Both the position numbers and the translations under genes were made by a program. DNA of 64,000 nucleotides from a virus (Duplodnaviria > Heunggongvirae > Uroviricota > Caudoviricetes), in IMG/VR virus record IMGVR_UViG_3300013426_000013, positions 125,580-189,579 of that record; one strand, given 5' to 3'. Below are positions 6,204 to 19,434 of the stretch, piece after piece (positions within the stretch are counted from its first letter, which is position 1; every line of letters starts with the position of its first letter). Below the pieces are notes generated by a model. That model was not told where the DNA came from and searched no databases. It saw only the letters and a program-made list of their open reading frames with translations.

Positions 6204-6899
6204 ATGACAACACACTTAATTGATGATAAAGGAATTGAACAACAAACTGTTGCTACAACAAACTACGTATCAAACACAATTGATGAGTTTGCCGGTACTG
6301 TAGATGTTTCTTCAATTATGCGTACATCTGGTGACCAAACTATTTTAGGAACAAAAAGCTTTAGTGGGAAAATAAATTATACAGCTACATTGAGTGCTTC
6401 TGCAAATGATCAACAACCCGCTACAACAGCATGGTGCAATTCAGCAACCAGTATTGTTCATAAAACAGGTGATGAAACAATTAACGGAACTAAAACATTC
6501 TCACAAACAATTAATGGCACCGCAATGTATGCGAATTGGGGAGACCTTGCCGAAATGTATCTAACAGATTTTAATTATAAAGCTGGTACATTAGTTCAGT
6601 TTGGCGGTGAAAAGGAAATGACATTAGCTATCAGTGAAGTTAATGGCGTTGTGTCTTCTGAGCCAGGATTATTAATTAATAACGTTAAGGATGATGGTGC
6701 ACAACCAATTGCCTTAATTGGTAAAGTACCTGTTCGTTTGATTGGTTCTGTTCATAAATTTGATAAAATAACTTTGTCTGATATTCCAGGTGTTGCTAAA
6801 GTTGCTGAAAGTGAAGATAAAGTTATTGGGGTTGCTTTAGAAGATAAATTAGATGAAGATGAGAAATTAGTTTTGTGTTCAGTTAAGCTGAAATTCTAA
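6204..6899 (+). CDS. Tail-fibre-like structural protein heading the radical-SAM operon
   Basis: TSGDQTILGTKSF and TGDETINGTKTF repeats; C-terminal GDLAEMY...GTLVQFGGEKE...LIGKVPV domain seen in large-phage virion proteins. Confidence 0.7.
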   Translation: MTTHLIDDKGIEQQTVATTNYVSNTIDEFAGTVDVSSIMRTSGDQTILGTKSFSGKINYTATLSASANDQQPATTAWCNSATSIVHKTGDETINGTKTFSQTINGTAMYANWGDLAEMYLTDFNYKAGTLVQFGGEKEMTLAISEVNGVVSSEPGLLINNVKDDGAQPIALIGKVPVRLIGSVHKFDKITLSDIPGVAKVAESEDKVIGVALEDKLDEDEKLVLCSVKLKF

Positions 6900-7309
6900 T
6901 GAAACAATATCTATTAGATAAAAGAAAACTTTCATATTTAATCAACGACTGGGATGATTTAAATCTTCCGTTTACTATAAACGATAAAGATATTGCATCT
7001 CAAGTCGTTGATTTCTTTTATGAACAATCTGAATTAGTTTACCCTGCAAAATCATACTTTGTTGCTATCGTTTATGCAAAATGTCTTGAGCACTTCTTTC
7101 ATGAAGATTTTTATGAGTGTCTATCTGTTAAAGATCTATTACCCGATGATAAATTTTTCAAAACGTATATTGACTCTCAAGAAATTTATGATAATATATT
7201 AACACGAATTAAAGACCCGTTATCATATAAATCTGTCGAAAAGACTGTAAGCTATTTTAAAAAGGAATTTCTAATTGGAACTGATAATCAAACCGACAGG
7301 TCGTTGTAA
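6899..7309 (+). CDS. Hypothetical accessory protein of the radical-SAM cluster (YPAKSYFVA motif)
   Basis: Overlaps the stop of 6204-6899 and the start of the first rSAM gene. Confidence 0.75.
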   Translation: MKQYLLDKRKLSYLINDWDDLNLPFTINDKDIASQVVDFFYEQSELVYPAKSYFVAIVYAKCLEHFFHEDFYECLSVKDLLPDDKFFKTYIDSQEIYDNILTRIKDPLSYKSVEKTVSYFKKEFLIGTDNQTDRSL

Positions 7310-8234
7310 TTTTAATTGCAAATTTTGTAGTGCTAATTTATTAAGTATTAAGCACCAAACAAAAGTGCCGAATGAATTAATAAAAATTATTAAAATTATC
7401 AAACCAAACAGTTTGATTTTTACAGGAGGGGACCCTTTATTAGTTGGCCCTGAATATTATCGTGAAATTTTGTCTTTGGGCACATTTTCTATTTCTTTAA
7501 CGACAAACCTAAAAGATTATTACATTCAACCCAAAAGATGGATTAGTTTGTTTAGAAATGAACGTGTCGGAATTTGCACATCTTTTCAATATGGAAATGA
7601 ACGTATGTGGAGTTCTGAACAGGTTTATAGTGAAGATTTATTTAAAAAAGTTATGAAAAGATTTAAAGAAGATATTGGTTACACACCTTCATTTATTTCA
7701 GTCATTTCTAAATCAAATGAGGATAAAGCATTAGATCATTTGTATCTTGCAAAAGAATTGAATACTAAATGCAAAATTAATGGCGTCTTACCAATCGGGC
7801 TATCAAAAGAATATTATCCTTTATATAAAATGATTGATATTTGGTTACAAATAAAAGAAAATAATCTTGAAGAATATTGGGATAACCAAATTCAATTTCA
7901 CAATGGTGGCTGCAATTTTAATACAAACTTAATGTGTTCAAGTACTATTCGCTCTTTTTGGCTTGATGACAACAATAATATACATTATAATAATTGTGAA
8001 GATTGCGCTGTACGTGGTTCGCGTATTCTTTTAGATAAAGGTAAAGTTACACCTAAAGAAGAGAGTATGAAACCTGAACAATTGATTTCTAACGATTGTT
8101 TATATTGTGAATTGTGCAGATTGTGCAATTCTTGTAAATCAACAAGACAAGCAATTATCGATAAACAGACTTTTTGTTTTGAAATGAAAAAACGGAAACA
8201 AAAGATATTGGATGCTAAATGGAAAATCTATTAA
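7275..8234 (+). CDS. Radical SAM protein 1 (SPASM/Twitch-like Cys-rich C-terminus)
   Basis: CNFNCKFC, GGDPL, C-terminal CLYCELCRLCNSC; TTG start after AAAGGA. Confidence 0.92.
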   Translation: MELIIKPTGRCNFNCKFCSANLLSIKHQTKVPNELIKIIKIIKPNSLIFTGGDPLLVGPEYYREILSLGTFSISLTTNLKDYYIQPKRWISLFRNERVGICTSFQYGNERMWSSEQVYSEDLFKKVMKRFKEDIGYTPSFISVISKSNEDKALDHLYLAKELNTKCKINGVLPIGLSKEYYPLYKMIDIWLQIKENNLEEYWDNQIQFHNGGCNFNTNLMCSSTIRSFWLDDNNNIHYNNCEDCAVRGSRILLDKGKVTPKEESMKPEQLISNDCLYCELCRLCNSCKSTRQAIIDKQTFCFEMKKRKQKILDAKWKIY

Positions 8235-9013
8235 CGTCGCTATATGTAATTCCAAACTATCAATGTAATCTTGCATGTCCGCATTGTACATTACACAATT
8301 ATAATATAGAATACAACGAAGAAACATTTATAGAAACATTAGTTAAAACAAACGCCAAAAAGTATATTTTATTTGGTGGAGAACCTTTGTTGCATTTTGA
8401 AAGATTTAAACATATTCTCGAAACTAAAAAGATTAACTCAATATCAACGAACCTTTTATTGTTATCAAAAGAATCACTAAATTTAATTGAATACTACAAC
8501 ATTAACATTGCTACTTCTTGGAATCTAAAAAGGTTCACAAACGATCAATTGAATAAATGGTTTGACAATATTAAAAAGGTACAATGTGACGTTTTAATAA
8601 CAATGACAAACGATTTGATAACTAAAAACGGTACAGAAAAAATGTTTGAAGTTTTAGAACATTTAGAAAGATTATGTACTGTAAAAAATATCATTTTTGA
8701 ACAAGTTGTTGATGATAGAATGAACGAAAAACATTATGAACAAGTTGACAATTGGTTGTGCAACATTCATGATAAATGGCATTTTAAAATGAATAATGCT
8801 ATTGAAGAAAAACTAAATAAATGTATTTTGGATTGTTCAAAAGTTAAAACGCTTGAACCAAACGGTATTTTGCATAATGGTTGCCCACAATTTAAAACTG
8901 TTCATGTTGTTGATAAATGTTTAAGTTGTGAATTAAATAAAATATGTAAGCCATGTATTCTACAAAAACATTGCACATTTCCAATAAAGCTTTACAACAA
9001 ATTAAAGGTTTAA
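8219..9013 (+). CDS. Radical SAM protein 2
   Basis: CNLACPHC, GGEPL, CLSCELNKICKPC. Confidence 0.92.
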   Translation: MENLLTSLYVIPNYQCNLACPHCTLHNYNIEYNEETFIETLVKTNAKKYILFGGEPLLHFERFKHILETKKINSISTNLLLLSKESLNLIEYYNINIATSWNLKRFTNDQLNKWFDNIKKVQCDVLITMTNDLITKNGTEKMFEVLEHLERLCTVKNIIFEQVVDDRMNEKHYEQVDNWLCNIHDKWHFKMNNAIEEKLNKCILDCSKVKTLEPNGILHNGCPQFKTVHVVDKCLSCELNKICKPCILQKHCTFPIKLYNKLKV

Positions 9014-9016
9014 GAA

Positions 9017-10123
9017 ATGAATCCTTTAGAGTTTTATAAAATTAGCGATTACTATGAAATTGCTTGCATGTTATTTGAACCTTGCAATTTGAAGTGTAAA
9101 TTTTGTTTTGAAGATCATAAAAACAAAACAATTGATACTGATTACATTGAGAATATTTACAAGATAATTGATGAAAAATTTTCGATTGATTATGAAAAAT
9201 ATAAACATTCATTAAAGACACTTTATATAATGATGTGGGGTGGTGAAATATTTTATGACGCACTACCTGACGAAGTTTTCAAATCATATTACAAGTTTGT
9301 AAATAATATAAAAGATTTGTTTGATAGGAAATTCCAAAACATAAAAGTTATTTTTTCATGGTTATCAAACGGTGTCTTTACAAACTATAAACGTGTAGAG
9401 GGTATTGTCAGATATTCAGGAGGGATTATTAACTTTAGCTATGACCCTGTTAATAGATTTTCAACATACAAACAAAAGGACTTAATGGTCAAAACAGCAA
9501 CACATTTTAAAAAGATTGGTTTAGCTGATAAAATTTCAATTACATTAACAAAAGACTCCATTAAAGGTTTTACTGAAAATGATGATTTATTAAAATACTT
9601 TAACGATATCGGATTCTTAATTGATGTCAATTACTATATTGCAAATGTCAACTGGCAATCATTATTGGCTACAGATGATGAAATATTTACATTTTTCAAA
9701 TGGGCAATAGATAATAAATTATATAAAATAAAAGTATTGGAAAAATGTTTTGATTCTGTTACAGGAAAGCCGTCATCTTCATACTGCAACTGTTTGTGGT
9801 GTTCCCAAATTACGCATGGTCAATGGAGTGTTGATTGTGCTAAATGTAGTTCAGTATTGCCGTCAGAATTATTTTATGGTGAATACACATCACAAATAAC
9901 AGAAGAAAATTCAAATCAAATTAAGGCATCTATTGGGTTGGTTAAACGTGGGTGTTTAGCCTGTGAATATCATCACATTTGTCAACACCCATGTTGGATT
10001 TCTGTGGTGTTTAAAGGATTTAAACCATCGATTTGCTTTTACAAACAAACTTACGATTATATAAAATCAAATGATGCTATTATCAATGATTTTTTGAAAT
10101 GGAAACACAATGAAACAAAATAA
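9017..10123 (+). CDS. Radical SAM protein 3
   Basis: CNLKCKFC, WGGEIF, CLACEYHHICQHPC. Confidence 0.92.
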   Translation: MNPLEFYKISDYYEIACMLFEPCNLKCKFCFEDHKNKTIDTDYIENIYKIIDEKFSIDYEKYKHSLKTLYIMMWGGEIFYDALPDEVFKSYYKFVNNIKDLFDRKFQNIKVIFSWLSNGVFTNYKRVEGIVRYSGGIINFSYDPVNRFSTYKQKDLMVKTATHFKKIGLADKISITLTKDSIKGFTENDDLLKYFNDIGFLIDVNYYIANVNWQSLLATDDEIFTFFKWAIDNKLYKIKVLEKCFDSVTGKPSSSYCNCLWCSQITHGQWSVDCAKCSSVLPSELFYGEYTSQITEENSNQIKASIGLVKRGCLACEYHHICQHPCWISVVFKGFKPSICFYKQTYDYIKSNDAIINDFLKWKHNETK

Positions 10124-11186
10124 TTTAAGCAGCTTCGGTTTTGATTGTTTATTATTTGAACGTTGCAATCTTCATTGTACTTTTTGTCTTGAAGAACATT
10201 CCGTAAATGATATTGACATTCAATGGATTAGACAACTTCCTTCAATGTTATTAGAAAGATTTGTAAAAGAATATGAAAAACATTCTGAAACAAATCTAAT
10301 CACATTTCGCATTTGGGGAGGTGAATTGTTTTTTGATGCTTTACCTGACAGTCTATTTAAAGAATATAGAATGTTTGTTGAACAAACAAAACGTTTATTT
10401 AATAAAACTTTTCCTAAAATTAAATTGGATTTTGCATGGGTTTCGAACGGTGTCTTTAAAAACATCGAACGAGTTATTAGTTTATTAAAAGAAACAAACA
10501 GTGGAATTAATTTAAGTTACGACCCTATTGGAAGATTTCATAAAAAAGAATTAGAAAATTTAATGATTGAAAATGCTTTACGCTTTAATTCATTGCAATT
10601 ATTGAATGAAATTTCAATCACATTAACTAAACCTTGTATTAATGCATACATAAACGATCAATCTCGACTTTTAGATTTAAAGTTTGCTAAAAAGATTGAT
10701 ATTAATTACTATATACCAAACATTAATTGGAAGGCTTTACTTCCATCTGATGACGATCTTTTTAACTTTTTTAAATGGACAATAGATAATAAACTGTTTC
10801 AAATTATTGATCTAAACAGCTTAATGCTAACACTAACTGGCAAAATGTCTAAATGTGTTAAAGGTTGCAACTGTAATAAACATTTATCAGCATGTAAAAA
10901 TTGTATTACATATAATTGTGTTAAAAGCTCAACAATATTTCCAAATACTGATTTCTATGGTGATACAGTTATTACTGAAGATAATGTCTCTGAAATTAAA
11001 AAGTATAAAGGAATGTGCAAGCGAGGTTGTTTCTATTGTAAATATATAGATAAATGCCCTGGATGTTGCTGGACATCTATTATCTATAAAAATGCTAAAC
11101 TCGACAACTGTCCGTTTAGAAAAATTATAGAATATATTGAACAAAATTCAAATCTAAAAAATGAATTCATATCATGGAAACTTTAA
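10110..11186 (+). CDS. Radical SAM protein 4 (tandem paralog of protein 3)
   Basis: CNLHCTFC, WGGELFFDALPD, CFYCKYIDKCPGCC; shares SNGVF, SYDP.GRF and INYYI.N.NW with protein 3. Confidence 0.92.
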   Translation: MKQNNLSSFGFDCLLFERCNLHCTFCLEEHSVNDIDIQWIRQLPSMLLERFVKEYEKHSETNLITFRIWGGELFFDALPDSLFKEYRMFVEQTKRLFNKTFPKIKLDFAWVSNGVFKNIERVISLLKETNSGINLSYDPIGRFHKKELENLMIENALRFNSLQLLNEISITLTKPCINAYINDQSRLLDLKFAKKIDINYYIPNINWKALLPSDDDLFNFFKWTIDNKLFQIIDLNSLMLTLTGKMSKCVKGCNCNKHLSACKNCITYNCVKSSTIFPNTDFYGDTVITEDNVSEIKKYKGMCKRGCFYCKYIDKCPGCCWTSIIYKNAKLDNCPFRKIIEYIEQNSNLKNEFISWKL

Positions 11187-12073
11187 GAAATTTATCTATA
11201 CAACCATCCTTTAAATGTAATTGGGGTTGTAAATTTTGTTATTTGGGTAATTTAAAAACTGATACAACACTTTTAAACCTCAATGTGTTAAAAGATAAAT
11301 TATCAGAAATTAAACAATATTACAAAATTACCCATGTCCAAGTATTAGGTGGGGAACCAAGCTTGCTTGATTGCTACTATTTGGAAGAGTTGCAAAACTT
11401 GATTAAAGATTATCAAGTTACGTATGTAACTAATTTTTCAAACATTAAATTCGTAAATTTTTGTTTACAACATAATGTGCAAATGACGATATCAGTCAAT
11501 AAAGAAAGACAACACTTTGCAGAAACAATAAAGAATTTAAATTTAATTAAAGGCTTGAAGAATATTCAATTAAGCAGCGTCGTTTTACCCTCACTGTTAA
11601 ATGACAACATTAAAAGCATTTTACAATTCTATAATTCTTTTGGGTTTGATGTTTATTTCTTAAAGTATAACGCTTCAAGAACTAACAAACTTAATTATAA
11701 CATAACAAATGAAAAATACTATAAATTTATTGATGAATTAATTAAACAATATCAGATCGGGCACTATAATTTTAAGATCAAAAATATTGATTTCTTATTG
11801 CAAGACAATATAAATGCCGTCAGTTGTGACTCGTTATTTTTAAACCCTAACGGTAAATTTTCAACAATAACATACGATAATAACAATAAAGAATATTTTG
11901 TTGAATTTGACACTGTTGAACAGTTTAGCAAATTTTGCAAAAGTATTAATGCAAAACAAAAAGATACATGCAAACAATGTTTTTATTATAAACAATGTGG
12001 TTCAAAAAATATTTATAGTTCAGATAAAAATAAATGTATGAATCTTTTTAAAATCAGAAATGAATTACTATGA
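11174..12073 (+). CDS. Radical SAM protein 5
   Basis: CNWGCKFC, GGEPS, CKQCFYYKQC. Confidence 0.92.
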   Translation: METLRNLSIQPSFKCNWGCKFCYLGNLKTDTTLLNLNVLKDKLSEIKQYYKITHVQVLGGEPSLLDCYYLEELQNLIKDYQVTYVTNFSNIKFVNFCLQHNVQMTISVNKERQHFAETIKNLNLIKGLKNIQLSSVVLPSLLNDNIKSILQFYNSFGFDVYFLKYNASRTNKLNYNITNEKYYKFIDELIKQYQIGHYNFKIKNIDFLLQDNINAVSCDSLFLNPNGKFSTITYDNNNKEYFVEFDTVEQFSKFCKSINAKQKDTCKQCFYYKQCGSKNIYSSDKNKCMNLFKIRNELL

Positions 12074-12996
12074 AAAATTTAACATTATCAATAATGCCTT
12101 CATATAAATGCAATTTCAAGTGTCAATATTGTTATTTAGGTAATTTAATACAATCTGACAATCTTTTAAGTTTGGAAAATCTTGAGTCTTCATTACTTGA
12201 ATTAAAGCAATTATATAATATTAAAAATGTTAGTTTGTACGGTGGTGAACTATCACTGCTTGATAACGTTTATTTACAACGTTTGGCGGATTTAATAAAA
12301 CTTCAATTACCTAAATCAAGTATATCTTTAACAAGTAATTTTAGTAATGAAAACATTTTAACTTTTTGTTTACTTAATAATATCAAGCTAAACGTTTCAT
12401 TAAATGAAGAAAGATACCAATACTCAAAAACATTACAACAAATCAAAGAATATACAGGAACAAAGCTTTTTGATCTAACTGTTGTTGTATTACCGTCTAT
12501 TATAAATAGACCAATAAATGAACTATATAAATTTTATAATAAATTAGGGTTTGATGTTTTCTTTATTCAACATCACAATTCAGTCTATAAAAAATCGTGT
12601 TCAATTTCATTAGATCAATTCTCAAGATTTTTATATGATTTCATTTGTTACCATTCAATGCAATCTGACGCTAAATTTAAAATAGAAAATTTAAATGTCT
12701 TAAATGATACAGATTTCGACCCAAACACGGAAGGTTATTTGTTTATAAACCCAAACGGAAAATACTGTACAACCGTTTTTAAAAATAATATAGAACAATA
12801 TGTAACATTTGACAACTTACAACAATGGCAAACATTCTGCGAGAAGAGTTATCAAACGTACATAAAATCTTGTTCAACGTGTAAATACTTTAACAAATGT
12901 AAAGCTGAACACCTTGAAACACTAAACAATAATAATGAATGCTCCGGGTTAAAACGTCTATTGACACTGTTACAAAATCGTTCTATTGTTAAATGA
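12070..12996 (+). CDS. Radical SAM protein 6 (tandem paralog of protein 5)
   Basis: CNFKCQYC, GGELS, CSTCKYFNKC; shares PS.KCN..C..CYLGNL and VVLPS with protein 5. Confidence 0.92.
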   Translation: MKNLTLSIMPSYKCNFKCQYCYLGNLIQSDNLLSLENLESSLLELKQLYNIKNVSLYGGELSLLDNVYLQRLADLIKLQLPKSSISLTSNFSNENILTFCLLNNIKLNVSLNEERYQYSKTLQQIKEYTGTKLFDLTVVVLPSIINRPINELYKFYNKLGFDVFFIQHHNSVYKKSCSISLDQFSRFLYDFICYHSMQSDAKFKIENLNVLNDTDFDPNTEGYLFINPNGKYCTTVFKNNIEQYVTFDNLQQWQTFCEKSYQTYIKSCSTCKYFNKCKAEHLETLNNNNECSGLKRLLTLLQNRSIVK

Positions 12997-13020
12997 CAAG
13001 TCGTACGACGGGTTTAAAAT

Positions 13021-13647
13021 ATGGTAGATTCAAATACAAAGATTCAAAAAATTACAGCAAATTCAATTGTTGGTTTCATTTCACAATTCAATTCAACAGT
13101 TGTTGATCCTGCCTATAATACAGCAACGTATCATTCAGGTAACAAACCTCATTTTTCAAAAACGGCTAACGGGTTAACAACTCCACAATCAGTACCTGAT
13201 AATCAATTGTTAGGTACAAAACGTACGTACCTGTCATCAAACGATACTAGAATAAACGCTGCTTCTTTATGTGCTGCACTATTAAACATTACACAATCTT
13301 TAAGTAAGATTAGAAAATTTCAATCACAATGGTATTTTAATACAAATGGTACACAAGCTTTAGTTGACAGTATGTCTGGAACAGGAATATTAACGTTCCC
13401 TGACATTCCCGCTGGTACAAAAGAAGCGTCATGGACACGTGAAGGAAATACAAATATACAACTGTCACCACAAATGCTTTTTTCTGCGGGTAAGAGAATT
13501 ATGGCTTCTGATGCAAACCAAACAATTGCAAATTGTTTAAATGCTTGGACTTCTCAATGTCGTGATAGCAATGAAATCATATATAAATTCTTTCAATGTT
13601 ATTCAGATTGTCATTCAAATTGTTATGATTCACGAGGAAGAAGATGA
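13021..13647 (+). CDS. Candidate radical-SAM substrate, 208 aa, ending CYSDCHSNCYDSRGRR
   Basis: Ser/Thr/Asn-rich virion-like body with a terminal Cx3Cx3C motif, embedded in the rSAM cluster. Confidence 0.6.
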   Translation: MVDSNTKIQKITANSIVGFISQFNSTVVDPAYNTATYHSGNKPHFSKTANGLTTPQSVPDNQLLGTKRTYLSSNDTRINAASLCAALLNITQSLSKIRKFQSQWYFNTNGTQALVDSMSGTGILTFPDIPAGTKEASWTREGNTNIQLSPQMLFSAGKRIMASDANQTIANCLNAWTSQCRDSNEIIYKFFQCYSDCHSNCYDSRGRR

Positions 13648-14360
13648 TTAAAACTGGTTTGCCTTATGATTTTGAAACTATGCAACAGATAATGCAAGAA
13701 GGCGCGATTGTTGATGTAACTAATATTAATTATCCTTCTATTCCAAATGAAGATAACGTAAAAACAAGTTTGATCTATTTAAGAAACACAAACTTTGACA
13801 ACGTTCATTTGAATTTTCAAAAAGCTGATTATAATTTAAAAGTAGAATTCTTAGATTGCTATTTTTCTGGCGGAAGTTTCCCTTGCAAGATTAATGAATT
13901 GTCTGATACATTATTACATGCAATATTTAAAATTCTAGATATTGACAATGAACTAGAAACAATATTAACCGAACAAGAAGAAGCTTTATATATAAATTCA
14001 CATAAAGAACAATTAAATGAATTGATTCAACTGTCAATATCCTTGCCACTATTTTTAATCAATCGTTTAGATAATATTGATTTTGAAATATCTTTTGATG
14101 ATTTATCAAAATCAAATGATGAAACTTGTAAAGATATCATTAATTTAATTATTGATTCGCCTGAATTTTGCCTGATATACTCTAAAGATTTAGGAATACA
14201 ACCTAAATTTTATGAAAAACTTTTTACATTAGATAACAATGTTTTATTTGAGAATATCTGCAATCATACGCCATTTCAAACTTTAATGTTTGGAATAGCC
14301 GACGAACAAAATTGGAACGCATTTGTAAATTCAATAAAGGAAGTGGTAAATGTTTTATAA
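13644..14360 (+). CDS. Hypothetical accessory protein of the rSAM cluster
   Basis: ATGA overlap with the previous gene; acidic 238 aa. Confidence 0.75.
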   Translation: MIKTGLPYDFETMQQIMQEGAIVDVTNINYPSIPNEDNVKTSLIYLRNTNFDNVHLNFQKADYNLKVEFLDCYFSGGSFPCKINELSDTLLHAIFKILDIDNELETILTEQEEALYINSHKEQLNELIQLSISLPLFLINRLDNIDFEISFDDLSKSNDETCKDIINLIIDSPEFCLIYSKDLGIQPKFYEKLFTLDNNVLFENICNHTPFQTLMFGIADEQNWNAFVNSIKEVVNVL

Positions 14361-15132
14361 TAATATTTATATAAAGACAACTGATGTTTGCCAACAACTT
14401 CCTTTATGTATTAAAAAGACCGCTAAAATTAATCAGAATTTTATTGGTGAAATACATATAGATAATGTCCAATCTATCTATAAAACAACTAACAAAAGTA
14501 TTACTTCAAAAGAAGAAGCTGAAAGAATCATTAATTCTACAAAAGCTATTAAATATTTTCAAGATTTCAATACTTTGCTGCTAAACAATGAATTGGACTT
14601 ATTTTTCGACAATTATTCAGGTGAAGATATTCTAGGGACATATTACTTATATCAAAATTCACAGTTTGAAAATTTTGCGTCATTATTAAATTCTAATTCT
14701 ATTGTTTATTCAACTATAGAAAATGTATATCATAAAAATACACAAGTATTAGATGTAAACATACCTATTGATTTATTTGATAACATTTTGATACAATATG
14801 ATGCACTATCTTATGGTGCTGAAAACAATTTTATTAACGATTACTTTTCACACGACGAAATTGTTAGTATACTAAATGATACTGTTAATAAAGGATTAAA
14901 AACAGCATTACAAATGTTTCTGCAAAACGACGGCAGCTTGTTACCTTCTAATAATAAATGTGAACTACAAGCATTATTGTTAATGATGCTAAAAGTTCCA
15001 TCAATACCTGTTAAATTATCAATCCTTGATAACAGCAGGTACAATAGCACAATAAATAATTTTAGACCGCACAAACAAATTAATAAACAAAAAATTCAAG
15101 AGCTGATACAGCCAAACTTTATTTTGCCATGA
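14350..15132 (+). CDS. Hypothetical accessory protein of the rSAM cluster
   Basis: Overlapping and translationally coupled; 260 aa. Confidence 0.7.
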   Translation: MFYNNIYIKTTDVCQQLPLCIKKTAKINQNFIGEIHIDNVQSIYKTTNKSITSKEEAERIINSTKAIKYFQDFNTLLLNNELDLFFDNYSGEDILGTYYLYQNSQFENFASLLNSNSIVYSTIENVYHKNTQVLDVNIPIDLFDNILIQYDALSYGAENNFINDYFSHDEIVSILNDTVNKGLKTALQMFLQNDGSLLPSNNKCELQALLLMMLKVPSIPVKLSILDNSRYNSTINNFRPHKQINKQKIQELIQPNFILP

Positions 15133-16106
15133 ATGAATTAATCATCTATTTGAAACTTACTAATCGTTGTCAATTACGTTGTCAGCATTGTTATAATGCT
15201 GTTTCAAAATTTAATGACGACTTATCTGTCAATACTTTAAAACAAGCCGTTTCTTTTATCAACAATAAAACTTTGACAAATAATGTAACATTAATACTAC
15301 ACGGTGGCGAACCTTTATATGACGGGATACAAAAATCCCAATTTGTTATTGATAATGTTGATAAAAAAGTTAACCTTTATATAACAACAAATTTAATGTA
15401 CAATATTGATGAAAAAACATTAAATTTCTTCAAACAATTCAAATTAATTTCAACATCGTGGGATTACAAAATTCGCTTCCGAACTAAACAACAATTAAAA
15501 CTTTGGGAAAATAATGTTAGAAAATTAACAGAATCAAACATAAATATTCAACCTATAGTTTCACTCAATAAATATTTAATAAACGAAATAAAATCAGACG
15601 CTTTATTTTCATATTTTAAACAATTTAACATATCAAAATTAAATTTTGAACGAATCACAGAAACTGGAAATGCTGCGAAATTTAATGTTAAAGCAAATAA
15701 TAGTGATATCGACAAATGGCTGTATAATGCATATATAGAAAATATCAACAAATTTAATTTTACAATCCCATTATTTGAAAGTTGTGAAGAAGCTGTTTTT
15801 CATAATAATTTGATAGGATGCAGGAAACGGCAATGCCAAAAGAAAATAATTACAATCAATACAGATGGAACAATTTGCGGGTGTCCTAACAGCTATCAAT
15901 TTACATATGGTGATATTTATGGGAAAACAAATGTTGATGTCTACAACTCTTTAATTACCAAAGAATTAATCAGAAATAACAATTGTTATATTTGTCAATA
16001 CTTTAAATATTGTAACGGAGACTGTTGCCAACTTAATTGGGATGAAACAGGTTGCCCTGGAATGCCGTCAATATTTGAATATTTAATAAATAAAGCCGGG
16101 AATTAA
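15129..16106 (+). CDS. Radical SAM protein 7 with SPASM-like domain
   Basis: CQLRCQHC, LHGGEPL, INTDGTICGCP, CYICQYFKYCNGDCC. Confidence 0.93.
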   Translation: MNELIIYLKLTNRCQLRCQHCYNAVSKFNDDLSVNTLKQAVSFINNKTLTNNVTLILHGGEPLYDGIQKSQFVIDNVDKKVNLYITTNLMYNIDEKTLNFFKQFKLISTSWDYKIRFRTKQQLKLWENNVRKLTESNINIQPIVSLNKYLINEIKSDALFSYFKQFNISKLNFERITETGNAAKFNVKANNSDIDKWLYNAYIENINKFNFTIPLFESCEEAVFHNNLIGCRKRQCQKKIITINTDGTICGCPNSYQFTYGDIYGKTNVDVYNSLITKELIRNNNCYICQYFKYCNGDCCQLNWDETGCPGMPSIFEYLINKAGN

Positions 16107-16122
16107 TCCCGGCCTTTCTTTT
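16092..16122. terminator. Terminator ending the rSAM operon
   Basis: GCCGGGA / TCCCGGC stem followed by CTTTCTTTT. Confidence 0.85.
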
Positions 16123-16360
16123 AGATGTCTTTACGTTCAAAGACTTCATTAATAAAGTCTTTATCATCAAACACTTTTGAAATTTCTACAATCAATGTCA
16201 AAAGCTGATCTTTTCTAAATGAACTGTTGCTAGAATTCTGGATAGCCATTGTTAATGCAGTCATTGCATGTTTTGCACCGTTAATAAATGACTGTTTCTG
16301 AATATGCTCAACACCTTCAGCTAATTCTTCTTTTAGGTTTTTCTTTTCTTTTTTGTTCAT
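16121..16360 (-). CDS. Hypothetical protein
   Basis: 79-aa ORF with AAGG SD. Confidence 0.7.
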   Translation of the reverse strand: MNKKEKKNLKEELAEGVEHIQKQSFINGAKHAMTALTMAIQNSSNSSFRKDQLLTLIVEISKVFDDKDFINEVFERKDI

Positions 16361-16371
16361 AATAACAACCT

Positions 16372-16680
16372 TTACACATCATATATATAAACGTAACCAC
16401 AAGCTTTATAGTCATCTTGTAGATTCCACCAATCATCAATGGTCAACTTCACACCAACATTACGAAAATGTTTGTAAATATCATCAATAATTTCTTTTGG
16501 CATATCTAACTCAACAGGGATCCCTCGTGAATCTACTTTAAACCTATCAATCTTTTTACCTTTCGAATATTTTGACTCTAATTTATCAATCTCACCTTCT
16601 AGAATTGACGGGTTGAATACAGACATCATAGACAAACCAATCATTGAAAAGCAGTCTCCAATAGATTTAAAAATCTTCAT
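16372..16680 (-). CDS. Hypothetical protein
   Basis: Start re-assigned to MKIFKS after AAGGA; promoter TTGACA-17-TATATT at 16712-16740. Confidence 0.7.
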   Translation of the reverse strand: MKIFKSIGDCFSMIGLSMMSVFNPSILEGEIDKLESKYSKGKKIDRFKVDSRGIPVELDMPKEIIDDIYKHFRNVGVKLTIDDWWNLQDDYKACGYVYIYDV

Positions 16681-16747
16681 TTTTCTGTCCTTTAAGTTAA
16701 ACAACAAAAACAATATAGCAAGAATGTACTAATTTGTCAATAAAAAG

Positions 16748-16784
16748 AAACAGTCTAGCAAATTTAATTACTAGACTGTCTTTT
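16748..16784 (-). terminator. Intrinsic terminator downstream of the ncRNA candidate
   Basis: CAGTCTAG / CTAGACTG stem with T-tracts on both strands. Confidence 0.8.
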
Positions 16785-16789
16785 GTATC

Positions 16790-17132
16790 AACAGGCTGTT
16801 AAAGGAATTGCACCTAAACCATGCGTCAACACGGTAGACTACTACAACCATAAATGCAGTAACCTCTATAGTCAATTCGTTTAGCTCACTGATTAATATG
16901 AAAATGCGTTGTTCGACACTTTATCACGTTAACCAAAATCTTCACTGGCATCGACAGAAGTTACTGCATCCTAAATGAAAGGATAGTCGAAAATCAATGA
17001 GCATTTCAATGACAGCCCTACAACGGAAAATTTTTCAAAAACCTTTGCAGGACGTTGTAATCTGAACAATGTGAAGTCATTGTAGCTGAAACAATTTGAT
17101 GACATACAATCAAACTGCAGATTACCTTCAAC
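16790..17132 (-). ncRNA. Structured non-coding RNA, tmRNA-like
   Basis: Own promoter and terminator; no ORF. GGCTGT pairs with ACAGCC; GGTGCAATTCC T-loop-like element; TTCGAC after the 5' stem; 14-bp helix ATGCAGTAACTTCT/AGAGGTTACTGCAT. Confidence 0.5.
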
Positions 17133-17737: not shown

Positions 17738-18367
17738 TTATTTATTTTTCTTGTAAACTTCATTAGCGCCAATGATGCCTTGTGCACGTAAATGTTTTTT
17801 AAAACAACGACGACAGCATGATTCATACTTTACATCATCACTTTCACAACCTGCATTGCCAGCTAAATATTTACCGCCAGATAAACGAATATGATGTGTT
17901 GCACGACGACCACAATCACAAATTCCAATAGTCTCTTCTAGCTCATCAGCAATAGCTAATAAAGTTGCACTTCCTTCGAACAAATCACCTTCAGCTGTTG
18001 TTTTCAGACCATAGCACATTACTGGAATGCCTAAATCATCTACAACATCACTTAAATAATATACATCTTCTTTTTTACAAAATTGTGACTCATCTACAAA
18101 AATAATATCTAAGTCTTCTACAGTGATAAAATTAGGTAAGTCACTAAATTTTCCTGAATCTAAAAACAAACACTCTGGCCCTTCAGGAATCGGTCTTGAA
18201 CATGTTGTCCCCATTTGACCGTGCGTAAAAGCACCATTTCTAGTATCCGTCGTTGGTTTAATAATTAATGTCTTTTTACCCTTTTCTTTATATGAATGGT
18301 TTTTACAAATCAATAAAGAGCTTTTACTGGAACCCATTGTTCCATATATGAAAAAAAGTTTAGCCAC
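17738..18367 (-). CDS. tdk: Thymidine kinase
   Basis: GTMGSSKS P-loop, IFVDESQF, VMCYGL, CDCGRRA...CCRRC zinc site. Confidence 0.93.
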   Translation of the reverse strand: MAKLFFIYGTMGSSKSSLLICKNHSYKEKGKKTLIIKPTTDTRNGAFTHGQMGTTCSRPIPEGPECLFLDSGKFSDLPNFITVEDLDIIFVDESQFCKKEDVYYLSDVVDDLGIPVMCYGLKTTAEGDLFEGSATLLAIADELEETIGICDCGRRATHHIRLSGGKYLAGNAGCESDDVKYESCCRRCFKKHLRAQGIIGANEVYKKNK

Positions 18368-18422: not shown

Positions 18423-19067
18423 TCAATCTTTTAGAATTAAATCTAAAACAGTTTGCTGATATTCTTCCAATGTTCCATTATTATAAATCGTGAAGTCTTC
18501 CAAACACAACCCTGCTAAAGACCTTTCAGACGCATGTACTTGCTTTAACAAATCAGGCAATTCAACATCTTCACCCCTTGCTTTAGCTACATTATACTTT
18601 TGTGCTGCAATATACCATTTAGGTAATTCCCCTCGTTTAATTCTATAAACAACACCATCTAAATCATGAATCATATTTACTTCATTCGGAAAACGTACAT
18701 CAGTAATTAAGTACGTTCCATCATAATCAGAATTCGCTAAACGATGCTTTAAAGCATAAACCCAAAAAGCATTATCAATTGTGTTTCTAAAACATTCTGT
18801 TCCAATTAACTGTAAAGCCAATCGAGGTGTAAATTCTTTTCCTAATACTTCAGACCAAAATTCATCTTTAGTTTCACGGAATTGTCTTGATTCAACGGTA
18901 TCGCCTTGCAATAACTTTCGATCCCACCCAAAAGATGCTGCCACAACATCTTTAACAGCATCCCCAAATGAAATCTTTTTATAACTATTACTTTTCGCAC
19001 ATAAAACATCAGCAGCAGTGTCTTTTCCTGAACCTGCTAATCCTGAAAAACCTATAATTTTAGCCAT
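18423..19067 (-). CDS. Deoxynucleoside monophosphate kinase (T4 gp1-like)
   Basis: IIGFSGLAGSGKDT, SFGDAVK, TPRLALQLIGTE, ITDVRFPNE. Confidence 0.9.
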   Translation of the reverse strand: MAKIIGFSGLAGSGKDTAADVLCAKSNSYKKISFGDAVKDVVAASFGWDRKLLQGDTVESRQFRETKDEFWSEVLGKEFTPRLALQLIGTECFRNTIDNAFWVYALKHRLANSDYDGTYLITDVRFPNEVNMIHDLDGVVYRIKRGELPKWYIAAQKYNVAKARGEDVELPDLLKQVHASERSLAGLCLEDFTIYNNGTLEEYQQTVLDLILKD

Positions 19068-19434
19068 TGTCAGGAACAACCTCTTTTAAAGTTACTCTTG
19101 TACGGTGTGGTGTTTCAATAATGTAATTCTTGAAACGAGGGTCTTTACGAACTTCTTTCATGTCAATTTCTTTTTTCCATAATTTTTCAGAATACGGGAT
19201 TGTATTCATAATTGCTTGACCAGCTTCAGTTAAAGAGTAACCTTTACAATCAGCAATCATTACCGAAATATCACCTAAAATAAATGTTTTCTGTTCAGGT
19301 TCTGCTACGACTTTTAACTCTTCAACTAAAGCATTTTCACATTTTTCTTTATATTCAGTTAATTCCTTAATCTTTTCACGCAACCGTTTTACTGCAATAG
19401 CTTTATCTCTTAAATCCTGTACTGATACAATCAT
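19060..19434 (-). CDS. Hypothetical protein
   Basis: Start re-assigned to MIVSVQ after AAAGGTGG; promoter TTGACA-17-TATTTT at 19466-19494. Confidence 0.7.
   Translation of the reverse strand: MIVSVQDLRDKAIAVKRLREKIKELTEYKEKCENALVEELKVVAEPEQKTFILGDISVMIADCKGYSLTEAGQAIMNTIPYSEKLWKKEIDMKEVRKDPRFKNYIIETPHRTRVTLKEVVPDNG

Follow-up and report, generated by a model that had tools for sequence, protein, structure and literature searches.

A Cys-His-repeat tail on a phage protein family as a candidate substrate of co-encoded radical SAM enzymes

This study concerns a gene at positions 13021–13647 (plus strand) of a 64,000-nucleotide stretch of viral DNA, hereafter the window, which comprises bases 125580–189579 of the IMG/VR record IMGVR_UViG_3300013426_000013 (313,762 bp, complete according to CheckV), and the operon of radical S-adenosylmethionine (rSAM) enzyme genes in which it lies. 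The gene starts with ATG, stops with TGA and encodes a protein of 208 amino acids (aa), which is predicted to consist of an alpha/beta body (residues ~18–193) and a C-terminal tail. The final 16 residues, CYSDCHSNCYDSRGRR (codons 13597–13644, plus strand), form three C-[H/Y]-x-[N/S/D] units (CYSD, CHSN and CYDS) followed by a terminal R-x-R-R (RGRR). The Cys residues are spaced Cx3Cx3C and are followed by Tyr, His and Tyr, in that order. Such an ending is unique to this gene among the 733 open reading frames (ORFs) of the 314-kb genome, and library scans returned no Pfam, PHROG or NCBIfam match for the protein.

All genes of the operon are on the plus strand. The first (6204–6899) encodes a tail-fibre-like protein of 231 aa with a BppL_N motif and a conserved C-terminal domain that is also found in PHROG tail-fibre families; its weak match to Peptidase_G2 suggests, on sequence similarity, an intramolecular-chaperone-type domain. 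The protein consists mainly of the C-terminal domain that caps far longer collagen-repeat fibres elsewhere (e.g., L028:5347-7107, 586 aa). It is followed by p136 (6899–7309; phrog_20737, function unassigned), which is recurrent in related cassettes, and by six accessory rSAM genes. These are 7275–8234 (cluster 3; CNFNCKFC motif and C-terminal Cys cluster), 8219–9013 (cluster 8; assigned by library matches and clustering), the two rSAM/SPASM paralogues a and b of cluster 2 at 9017–10123 and 10110–11186 (canonical CX2CX5CX3C SPASM motif in both, 40% identity to each other), and the two paralogues a and b of cluster 4 at 11174–12073 (twitch-like C-terminus; Pfam Radical_SAM 33.5 bits) and 12070–12996 (Radical_SAM 30.8 bits, Fer4_12 26.3 bits), the latter directly 5' of the tail gene. 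The stop codon of the tail gene overlaps the start of the next gene in an ATGA at 13644–13647, and the 238-aa protein encoded there (13644–14360, function unassigned) is translationally coupled to it. This protein has the position and size of the phrog_20767 protein of other cassettes. Between it and the last rSAM gene lies a gene for a 260-aa protein, likewise of unassigned function (14350–15132). In pairwise comparison neither of the two proteins resembled u240 (phrog_20767) or u370, whose genes lie 3' of the tail gene elsewhere. The last gene, 15129–16106, encodes the core rSAM/SPASM enzyme (cluster 0; phrog_1802 at 6e-36). It contains CQLRCQHC, GGEP and CYICQYFKYCNGDC, that is, the CX3CX2C, GGE and CX2CX5CX3C motifs by which the rSAM/SPASM superfamily is recognised. 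A strong bidirectional hairpin resembling an intrinsic terminator (16095–16113) closes the operon. All seven rSAM ORFs (starting at 7275, 8219, 9017, 10110, 11174, 12070 and 15129) share an N-terminal CX3CX2C, C-terminal Cys clusters and a match to phrog_1802; three have the canonical SPASM CX2CX5CX3C, two have one-residue variants of it and two are twitch-like.

Relatives of the 208-aa protein were searched for exhaustively with phmmer in 1.84 billion representative sequences. This yielded 76 relatives (26 at E ≤ 1e-10), most of them 190–260 aa long, with alignments running through to residue 208; a word-based search retrieved only three close relatives (82–95% identity, same gene order). Nearly all phmmer relatives end in Y-T-C-H-x-N-C-H-x-x-C-H-x-x-R-[GS]-R-R. 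In a family alignment of 61 sequences with a mean column identity of 21%, the invariant columns were M1, C193, R205, R207 and R208 and no others, and W176, Y188, H194 (Tyr in the 208-aa protein) and C197 were conserved to at least 90%. The tail is therefore the most conserved part of the family, with the form (C-[H/Y]-x-[N/S])2-5 followed at the C-terminus by an R-x-R-R that is 100% conserved. Tails carry two to five repeat units, mostly three. The last Cys is missing, or is a Trp, in some members, which keep the aromatic-x-N/S/D triplet, and the sub-clade that includes the 208-aa protein has two additional Cys in the helix before the tail.

The original prediction, made from the window alone, had noted the regular Cx3Cx3C with an aromatic residue after each Cys and its resemblance to the aromatic-X-X motifs of triceptides. 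Both observations hold well beyond this one gene, although the aromatic residue is usually not the Tyr that dominates in the 208-aa protein. Position 2 of the repeat unit is occupied by His (92% of family units) or Tyr (8%) and by nothing else, and position 4 is Asn in 47% and Ser in 37% (84% together). The 208-aa protein is accordingly a Tyr-rich variant of a C-H-x-[N/S] repeat, in which the aromatic-X-X triplets read Y-S-D, H-S-N and Y-D-S. The tail-bearing proteins form a widespread, uncharacterised family. One PHROG of unassigned function (phrog_35144) matches the tail of one relative. The GenBank phage collection gave no match to a megablast search with positions 7000–17000 or to tblastn with the 208-aa protein and two relatives, and was matched only by queries of the Atu_ph07 and RSF1 types. 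A search of a library of open-access literature (phage rSAM and tail fibre, CXXX repeat, phage RiPP, and the text of a survey of 224 jumbo phages) found no published account of the cassette.

For the analysis of genomic context the tail was back-translated, as (C-H-x-x)3-R-x-R-R-stop, into a degenerate DNA pattern of 43 bits. At least 120 viral contigs, between 5.6 and 490 kb in length, contained the pattern, and at least 141 of their ORFs end with the tail. Linkage to rSAM genes was counted among the matches listed, in the 60 loci with enough sequence on both sides. The original prediction had proposed co-occurrence with rSAM arrays as a check, and lack of motif conservation or of linkage as grounds for rejection; the outcome was strongly positive. 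rSAM-like ORFs were present in 59 of the 60 viral loci and directly adjacent in 51. Single tail genes of 170–360 aa had an rSAM gene directly upstream in 39 of 42 cases, and tandem pairs of ~127-aa tail genes had one directly downstream in 9 of 11. Nine chance matches to the pattern in high-GC bacterial genomes (8 kb each) contained neither a tail ORF nor an rSAM-like ORF. The directly upstream enzymes belong almost entirely to a single clade, cluster 0 (71 of 75). An enzyme is thus paired genomically with a repeat-bearing candidate substrate, as is typical of rSAM/SPASM maturation systems. In the window the cluster-0 member is 15129–16106 and not the gene directly 5' of the tail gene; the other six rSAMs belong to clades that recur further along the cassettes elsewhere.

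Two types of cassette were distinguished. Type A comprises, in order, a fibre gene, a cupin gene (~160 aa), rSAM-0, the tail protein, the phrog_20767 protein (~240 aa), a ~370-aa protein, rSAM-2, rSAM-3, rSAM-4 and p136 (phrog_20737). The window cassette is a permuted version of this set in which no cupin was recognised. Type B comprises a tail fibre, two small tail proteins, rSAM-1, proteins of ~367 and ~278 aa, and further copies of rSAM-1. Its small proteins are encoded in tandem, are ~127 aa long and carry a (CHxS)3-RGRR tail on a different small body, and its rSAM is a distinct clade present in up to five or six copies. Homologues of the fibre gene 6204–6899 (C-terminal domain) were found in at least 59 tail-bearing loci, and those of p136 in at least 16 viral loci. 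A body-only profile, i.e., the family profile without the tail columns, was applied to proteins that had been retrieved by the tail alone; among the matches listed, those recovered were 62 of the 69 of mid size, 14 of the 22 large ones and only 3 of the 50 small ones. Since nearly all small proteins were missed, the tail is shared by at least two bodies, each with an rSAM clade of its own. Cassettes of other carriers also encode cupin/JmjC or 2-oxoglutarate (2OG) oxygenases. The gene of ~160–190 aa between the fibre and the core rSAM encodes a member of JmjC_2/Cupin_2 (33.8 bits, with the cut-off at 22; examples are Atu_ph07 gp172 at L126:6363-6947, L064:6535-7017 and RSF1 ORF069), a relative of the ribosomal oxygenases that hydroxylate Arg or His in proteins.

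The DNA pattern was also applied to bacterial and archaeal contigs (one genome per species), where 47 matches included ~37 true tail ORFs, almost all of them beside rSAM genes. More than half of these loci belong to Bdellovibrionota, in which more than 25 genomes have the core rSAM and a phrog_20767-like gene together with the tail protein, with homologues of p136 in several loci. No fibre homologue was found within 8 kb of the Bdellovibrionota loci. Some copies lie on contigs of 1.3–2.8 Mb, flanked by LspA or an ABC ATPase, together with two 2OG-Fe(II) oxygenases. The Bdellovibrionota copies may be prophage remnants or a cellular system of these predatory bacteria. The pair of rSAM and tail is kept where there is no fibre gene, and the tail is also kept on a different small body beside a different rSAM clade; it is therefore the tail protein, and not the fibre, that consistently accompanies the rSAM.

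The structure of the 208-aa protein was predicted with AlphaFold2 (AF2) from the 61-sequence multiple sequence alignment, which gave a mean predicted local distance difference test score (pLDDT) of 87.7 and a predicted template modelling score (pTM) of 0.82; an alignment of three sequences gave an unusable model (pLDDT 33). The model consists of three helices and a sheet over residues ~18–193, with a last strand (186–193) that ends at the invariant C193 and contains the residues preceding the first Cys (Y-x-x-Y-T-C). Residues 194–208 are extended and are the sole low-confidence part, and the tail is thus predicted to be exposed. Foldseek against the PDB returned nothing at E ≤ 0.001, VIA-align against 48,161 chains gave a best Z of 3.6 with no significant hit (weak rows for phage baseplate and TssK proteins included), and a feature search of the ESM Atlas gave no usable match. 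Matches in BFVD were to uncharacterised phage proteins only, among them a 296-aa protein of Atu_ph07. A predicted complex of the core rSAM (35-row alignment, with SAM and three 4Fe-4S clusters) and residues 140–208 of the tail protein scored 0.00, which is evidence neither way.

Several cultured phages carry the tail protein, annotated merely as 'hypothetical protein', together with a 'radical SAM domain protein'. In phage Atu_ph07 the tail protein gp170 is encoded beside the rSAM gp171 and the JmjC/cupin protein gp172. Further carriers are Sinorhizobium phage Phosso, the Ralstonia phages RSF1 (whose ORF071 is the tail protein, ending in VCHSSCHSSCHGSRGRR), RSL2, RsoM3USA and the FLC4 phages, and the Burkholderia phages FLC6, FLC8 and SURPRISE13, which also have the pair of tail protein and rSAM; Pseudomonas phage pPa_SNUABM_DT01 encodes a cluster-0 rSAM. 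The relationship of gp170 to the family was confirmed by profile comparison (hhalign probability 98.7%, E 1.7e-16) over the last helix, the last strand and the tail. In the published electrospray ionization tandem mass spectrometry of Atu_ph07 virions, gp170 (31.89 kDa) was detected with 8 unique peptides and 35% coverage, in gel bands 1–9 and most abundantly in band 1 (PMC6102473 Table S5). The other proteins that peak in band 1 with at least three peptides are of 75–139 kDa, and the other small proteins peaking there have only one or two peptides each (PMC6102473 Table S5). No entry exists in the virion table for the rSAMs gp171, gp168 or gp165, nor for gp169 or gp172 (PMC6102473 Table S5). 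A family member is therefore a particle protein and its enzymes are not, which agrees with the earlier description of the 208-aa protein as virion-like. The virion protein gp176 of the same phage shares 41% identity over its C-terminal 143 residues with the product of 6204–6899 (E 6e-21). By its gel distribution gp170 runs as a high-mass species stable to SDS and heat, for which covalent linkage is one explanation and a stable oligomer another. The virion proteomics of ΦRP31 was also considered as evidence for the family and was rejected, as this phage has an rSAM cassette without the CH tail and neither ORF070 nor ORF078 ends in it. The cassette of ΦRP12 and ΦRP31 (RP31 AP017925: 76162-86742) encodes a YomR-like fibre, a 125-aa ORF ending in …HTHYSPDGSY and four or five genes annotated as rSAM, 'MoaA' or 'MgoB'. 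Judging from its sequence, the 125-aa ORF may represent a third type of substrate for phage rSAM batteries.

A second battery, of four divergent rSAM genes, lies outside the window at genome positions 98033–103635, ~22–27 kb before it. At 1.2 kb 5' of this battery a 218-aa protein is encoded that has a poly-Ser/Cys tail ending in …ACSSSSSSSSSSCSCSSSSSCCSSSSSYIVYMMI. No homology was detected between its body and the 208-aa family (hhalign probability 0.6%; a weak test, as a single sequence was compared with a profile). With both sets of genes present and no detectable homology between the bodies, this phage has two systems of a tailed protein and an rSAM battery that differ in their tails. A single further rSAM-like ORF occurs outside the two batteries in the 314-kb genome, and it adjoins a gene of the size of NrdD. 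Just 3' of the operon, on the minus strand, are ORFs resembling a thymidine kinase and a nucleotide kinase (17738–18367 and 18423–19079); the related contig L002 has matches to PF00265 (TK) and PF21448 (DNMK) at their position.

The gene had also been proposed to have a regulatory element of its own. The palindrome core TCGTACGA is located at 13001–13008, in the 24-nt gap between the preceding rSAM gene and the tail gene and 12 nt before the ATG. It is enriched in the window, with four copies (3007, 3046, 13001 and 19527) against 0.23 expected and four reached in 0 of 100 shuffles; 14 copies occur genome-wide, spread over 81.7–200.8 kb. Most of the genomic copies are halves of a composite palindrome, AGAACAT-N4-TCGTACGA-(~25 nt)-TCGTACGA-N4-6-ATGTTCT, which is found 40–70 nt 5' of several plus-strand gene starts and, from its sequence and placement, looks like an operator or a phage-specific promoter. 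The copy 5' of the tail gene, however, consists of the core alone and lacks the AGAACAT/ATGTTCT arms. Because just the core is present, at no more than 12 nt from the ATG, it is only a candidate promoter of the tail gene. A sigma-70 scan (90 sites against 73.8 expected) was uninformative in this AT-rich DNA.

We propose, with a probability of roughly 0.6, that the 208-aa protein and its relatives are virion proteins whose tail is the substrate of the co-encoded rSAM enzymes, and that no free peptide is released from the modified tail. The analysis shows that the motif is conserved across the family, that its genes are tightly linked to rSAM genes, that the predicted body is folded with an exposed tail, and that one homologue is present in virions; modification of the tail by the rSAMs is inferred. 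The combination of His or Tyr at position 2 with Asn or Ser at position 4 reproduces the aromatic-X-X rule of triceptides. The core enzyme 15129–16106 would act on the exposed tail, and the six other paralogues would add further modifications, several distinct ones being suggested by the presence of seven rSAM enzymes in the window. 5'-Deoxyadenosyl radicals would take hydrogen from side-chain carbons of the repeat units, from which small intramolecular crosslinks would arise, either an aromatic-to-Cβ cyclophane per H/Y-x-N/S triplet, at -2 Da per ring, or Cys thioethers, or both. The invariant Cys might form additional thioethers or ligate an auxiliary cluster during catalysis. In other carriers the cupin/JmjC or 2OG oxygenases would probably hydroxylate, with His, Arg or Asn as possible targets. 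The product would be a rigid, protease-resistant knot with a tri-arginine end that remains joined to the body, and the whole would be assembled into the virion in the vicinity of the tail fibre or baseplate. The type of crosslink is speculative, and so is what the basic R-x-R-R end does: it may serve the enzymes for recognition, or it may touch another virion protein or anionic surface polymers. The crosslinked tail may even be stapled covalently to other tail or fibre proteins, and, if so, the position of the 32-kDa Atu_ph07 homologue at the top of the gel would be explained. The full picture, in which rSAM batteries together with JmjC/2OG oxygenases make a polycyclic, arginine-tipped structure on the phage particle, and separately in Bdellovibrionota, and in which a virion protein carries radical-SAM crosslinks, is put forward tentatively, at a little short of even odds.

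Several points weigh against the proposal. Modification has been observed on no member of the family, and plain metal binding is a possible role of the Cys/His repeats. The scores of all seven enzymes lie far under every curated family cut-off, and homology therefore does not assign a chemistry, be it thioether, cyclophane or other. In the window the core rSAM gene is separated from the tail gene by two genes of unassigned function. The IMG/VR loci are not phylogenetically independent, and the locus counts therefore overstate the number of independent observations. The support for a place in the virion comes from one distant homologue, whose migration at high mass an SDS-stable oligomer could account for without covalent chemistry.

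Of the alternatives, the one to be taken most seriously, although we regard it as unlikely, is an unmodified metal-binding tip, in which Cys and His bind Zn, Fe or Cu, for example along the axis of a fibre-associated oligomer, and the rSAMs act on another member of the cassette. Phage fibres and spikes provide precedents in the HxH iron sites of T4 gp37 and of the P2 and phi92 spike tips. The tail is rich in these classical ligands, its gene lies within a tail-fibre operon, the two extra Cys in the preceding helix of the sub-clade could contribute, and the Atu_ph07 homologue migrates at high mass as stable fibre oligomers do. The pattern of substitution argues otherwise: His is exchanged only for Tyr, and the last Cys is lost or exchanged for Trp in units that keep aromatic-x-N/S/D, which fits an aromatic crosslink partner better than a metal ligand. 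Position 4 is conserved although Asn and Ser are not ligands, and the linkage to rSAM genes persists where there is no fibre gene nearby and across two unrelated bodies.

The similarity of the enzymes to maturases of peptides that are made ribosomally and modified post-translationally (RiPPs) and the C-terminal position of the repeats, where RiPP precursors have their core, would also be accommodated if the 190-residue body were a leader or scaffold from which the tail of 12–16 residues is cleaved as a free peptide (antimicrobial, signal, anti-defence or superinfection exclusion). Long leader domains do occur in other RiPP classes, such as the nitrile-hydratase-like leaders. A classic precursor is short (typically <100 aa) and loses its leader; here the protein has 208 aa and a conserved, confidently folded body, scans of the cassette neighbours revealed no recurrent protease or exporter, and no conserved cleavage motif precedes the tail, which instead continues a beta-strand. 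The Atu_ph07 homologue is found at full size in virions, with peptides over 35% of the protein. The original prediction had favoured a structural protein over a classic short precursor, and these findings side with it; we consider a released peptide improbable. Most improbable by a wide distance is that the tail serves the rSAMs as an electron carrier and not as a substrate, with its C-x3-C-H as variant haem c sites or as ligands of an Fe-S cluster. C-H-x-x-C-H does contain CX3CH, a known variant of the CXXCH haem-binding motif, and rSAM enzymes need reductants. Yet no signal peptide is present in the protein and no gene for cytochrome c maturation in the cassette, Tyr takes the place of two of the three His in the 208-aa protein, some repeat units are without Cys, and a location in the virion is unfit for an electron carrier.

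If the proposal of a tail modified on the virion protein is true, it would add a new substrate class for SPASM enzymes and the first viral structural protein matured by radical SAM enzymes, and would open up radical chemistry after translation as a new area in virion assembly or host recognition. In jumbo phages, many genes annotated as 'hypothetical protein' or 'radical SAM domain protein' would gain a function, those of the cultured Atu_ph07, RSF1, RSL2, FLC6, FLC8 and SURPRISE13 included. Further members can be mined with the signature (C-H-x-S/N)n-R-x-R-R followed by a stop codon, and the availability of cultured carriers with published virion proteomes makes the hypothesis directly testable. 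The chromosomal copies in Bdellovibrionota suggest that the chemistry is shared by predators that have to attach to their prey.

Known rSAM/SPASM maturases act on small natural-product peptides and on a few cellular proteins. All rSAMs of the window score far below the NCBIfam cut-offs of these families, the best match being that of 15129–16106 to DynA (56 bits against a cut-off of 450). Across the core clade (35 members) weak matches were to DynA (35), PapB (35), anSME (34), YhhB (31) and HxsB (28), the TIGR04085 SPASM model matched 32 of the 35, and the solved structures nearest to the core enzyme were an unnamed rSAM (8vpo), ChlB, CteB and anSME. By sequence, the core clade is placed as a separate branch among the SPASM peptide and protein maturases.

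With the ranthipeptides and sactipeptides, which the original prediction had also named, the system shares SPASM enzymes, a Cys spacing with period 4 as in SCIFF-type cores, and CteB among the nearest structures. It differs in that the scores are 44.7 bits against 340 for PapB and 24 against 350 for TIGR04115 ('CXXX-repeat target' maturase), a match to the SCIFF maturase model is found in only 6 of the 35 core-clade members and below threshold, there is no short leader, and in the C-x-x-x-C of the tail residue i+4 is the next Cys, as opposed to Cys-X3-Asp. The 3-CyFEs (XyeB, YhhB, FxsB, AmcB, HaaB, HtkB and ChlB) form three-residue cyclophanes; these triceptide synthases bond the Cβ of the third residue to an aromatic carbon, which may be the C2 of His, and HtkB and HaaB make His-C2-to-Cβ crosslinks (PMC11499958). 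The repeated H/Y-x-N/S beside rSAM/SPASM enzymes, the acceptance of His as the aromatic partner and weak matches of the window and core enzymes to YhhB, AmcB, FxsB and the ChlB structure are in line with this chemistry. The scores, in contrast, fall far below the family cut-offs (AmcB 34.2/425, FxsB 33.1/370, YhhB 28.2/445 and XyeB 21/450, given as score/cut-off), and the substrate is a folded protein of 208 aa in which invariant Cys flank the triplets and which is served by up to seven rSAMs per cassette.

A substrate that stays a working protein after modification is found with anSME, which generates formylglycine in sulfatases, and with QhpD, which introduces thioethers into QhpC. Among solved structures, anSME also ranks with the nearest, aligned over the full length at E 1.3e-7. 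The window enzymes nevertheless score under the cut-offs of both families, and the tail lacks the anSME motif (C/S)-x-(P/A)-x-R: its last unit is C-Y-D-S-R in the 208-aa protein and C-H-x-[S/N]-R across the family, where position 3 is never Pro and rarely Ala.

A connection between phage biology and bacterial defence is offered by the newly described HXS antiphage system, in which HxsA is matured by the rSAMs HxsB and HxsC with HxsD, the modification maps to an S-H-R-S-S motif of HxsA, and the matured H-x-S-repeat protein blocks DNA entry, acting as a protein (Li et al., Nat Commun 2026, PMC13128918). The window enzymes are not HxsC (27.6 bits against 267.9) or HxsB (22.4 against 370), to which only the rSAM core region matches. 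The phage unit has four residues with an invariant Cys and is placed at the extreme C-terminus with a closing R-x-R-R. Its 208-aa body differs from the HxsA effector in having no detected peptidoglycan-binding domain and a fold without match, and the protein is phage-encoded beside tail fibres, with a homologue in virions. Common to both are a whole protein of ~200 aa as the substrate, tandem repeats of the His-x-Ser type rich in basic residues, at least two co-encoded rSAMs and a tie to the conflict between phage and host. We regard the phage system as a probable instance of rSAM/SPASM maturation in which the substrate family is new and the setting is the virion.

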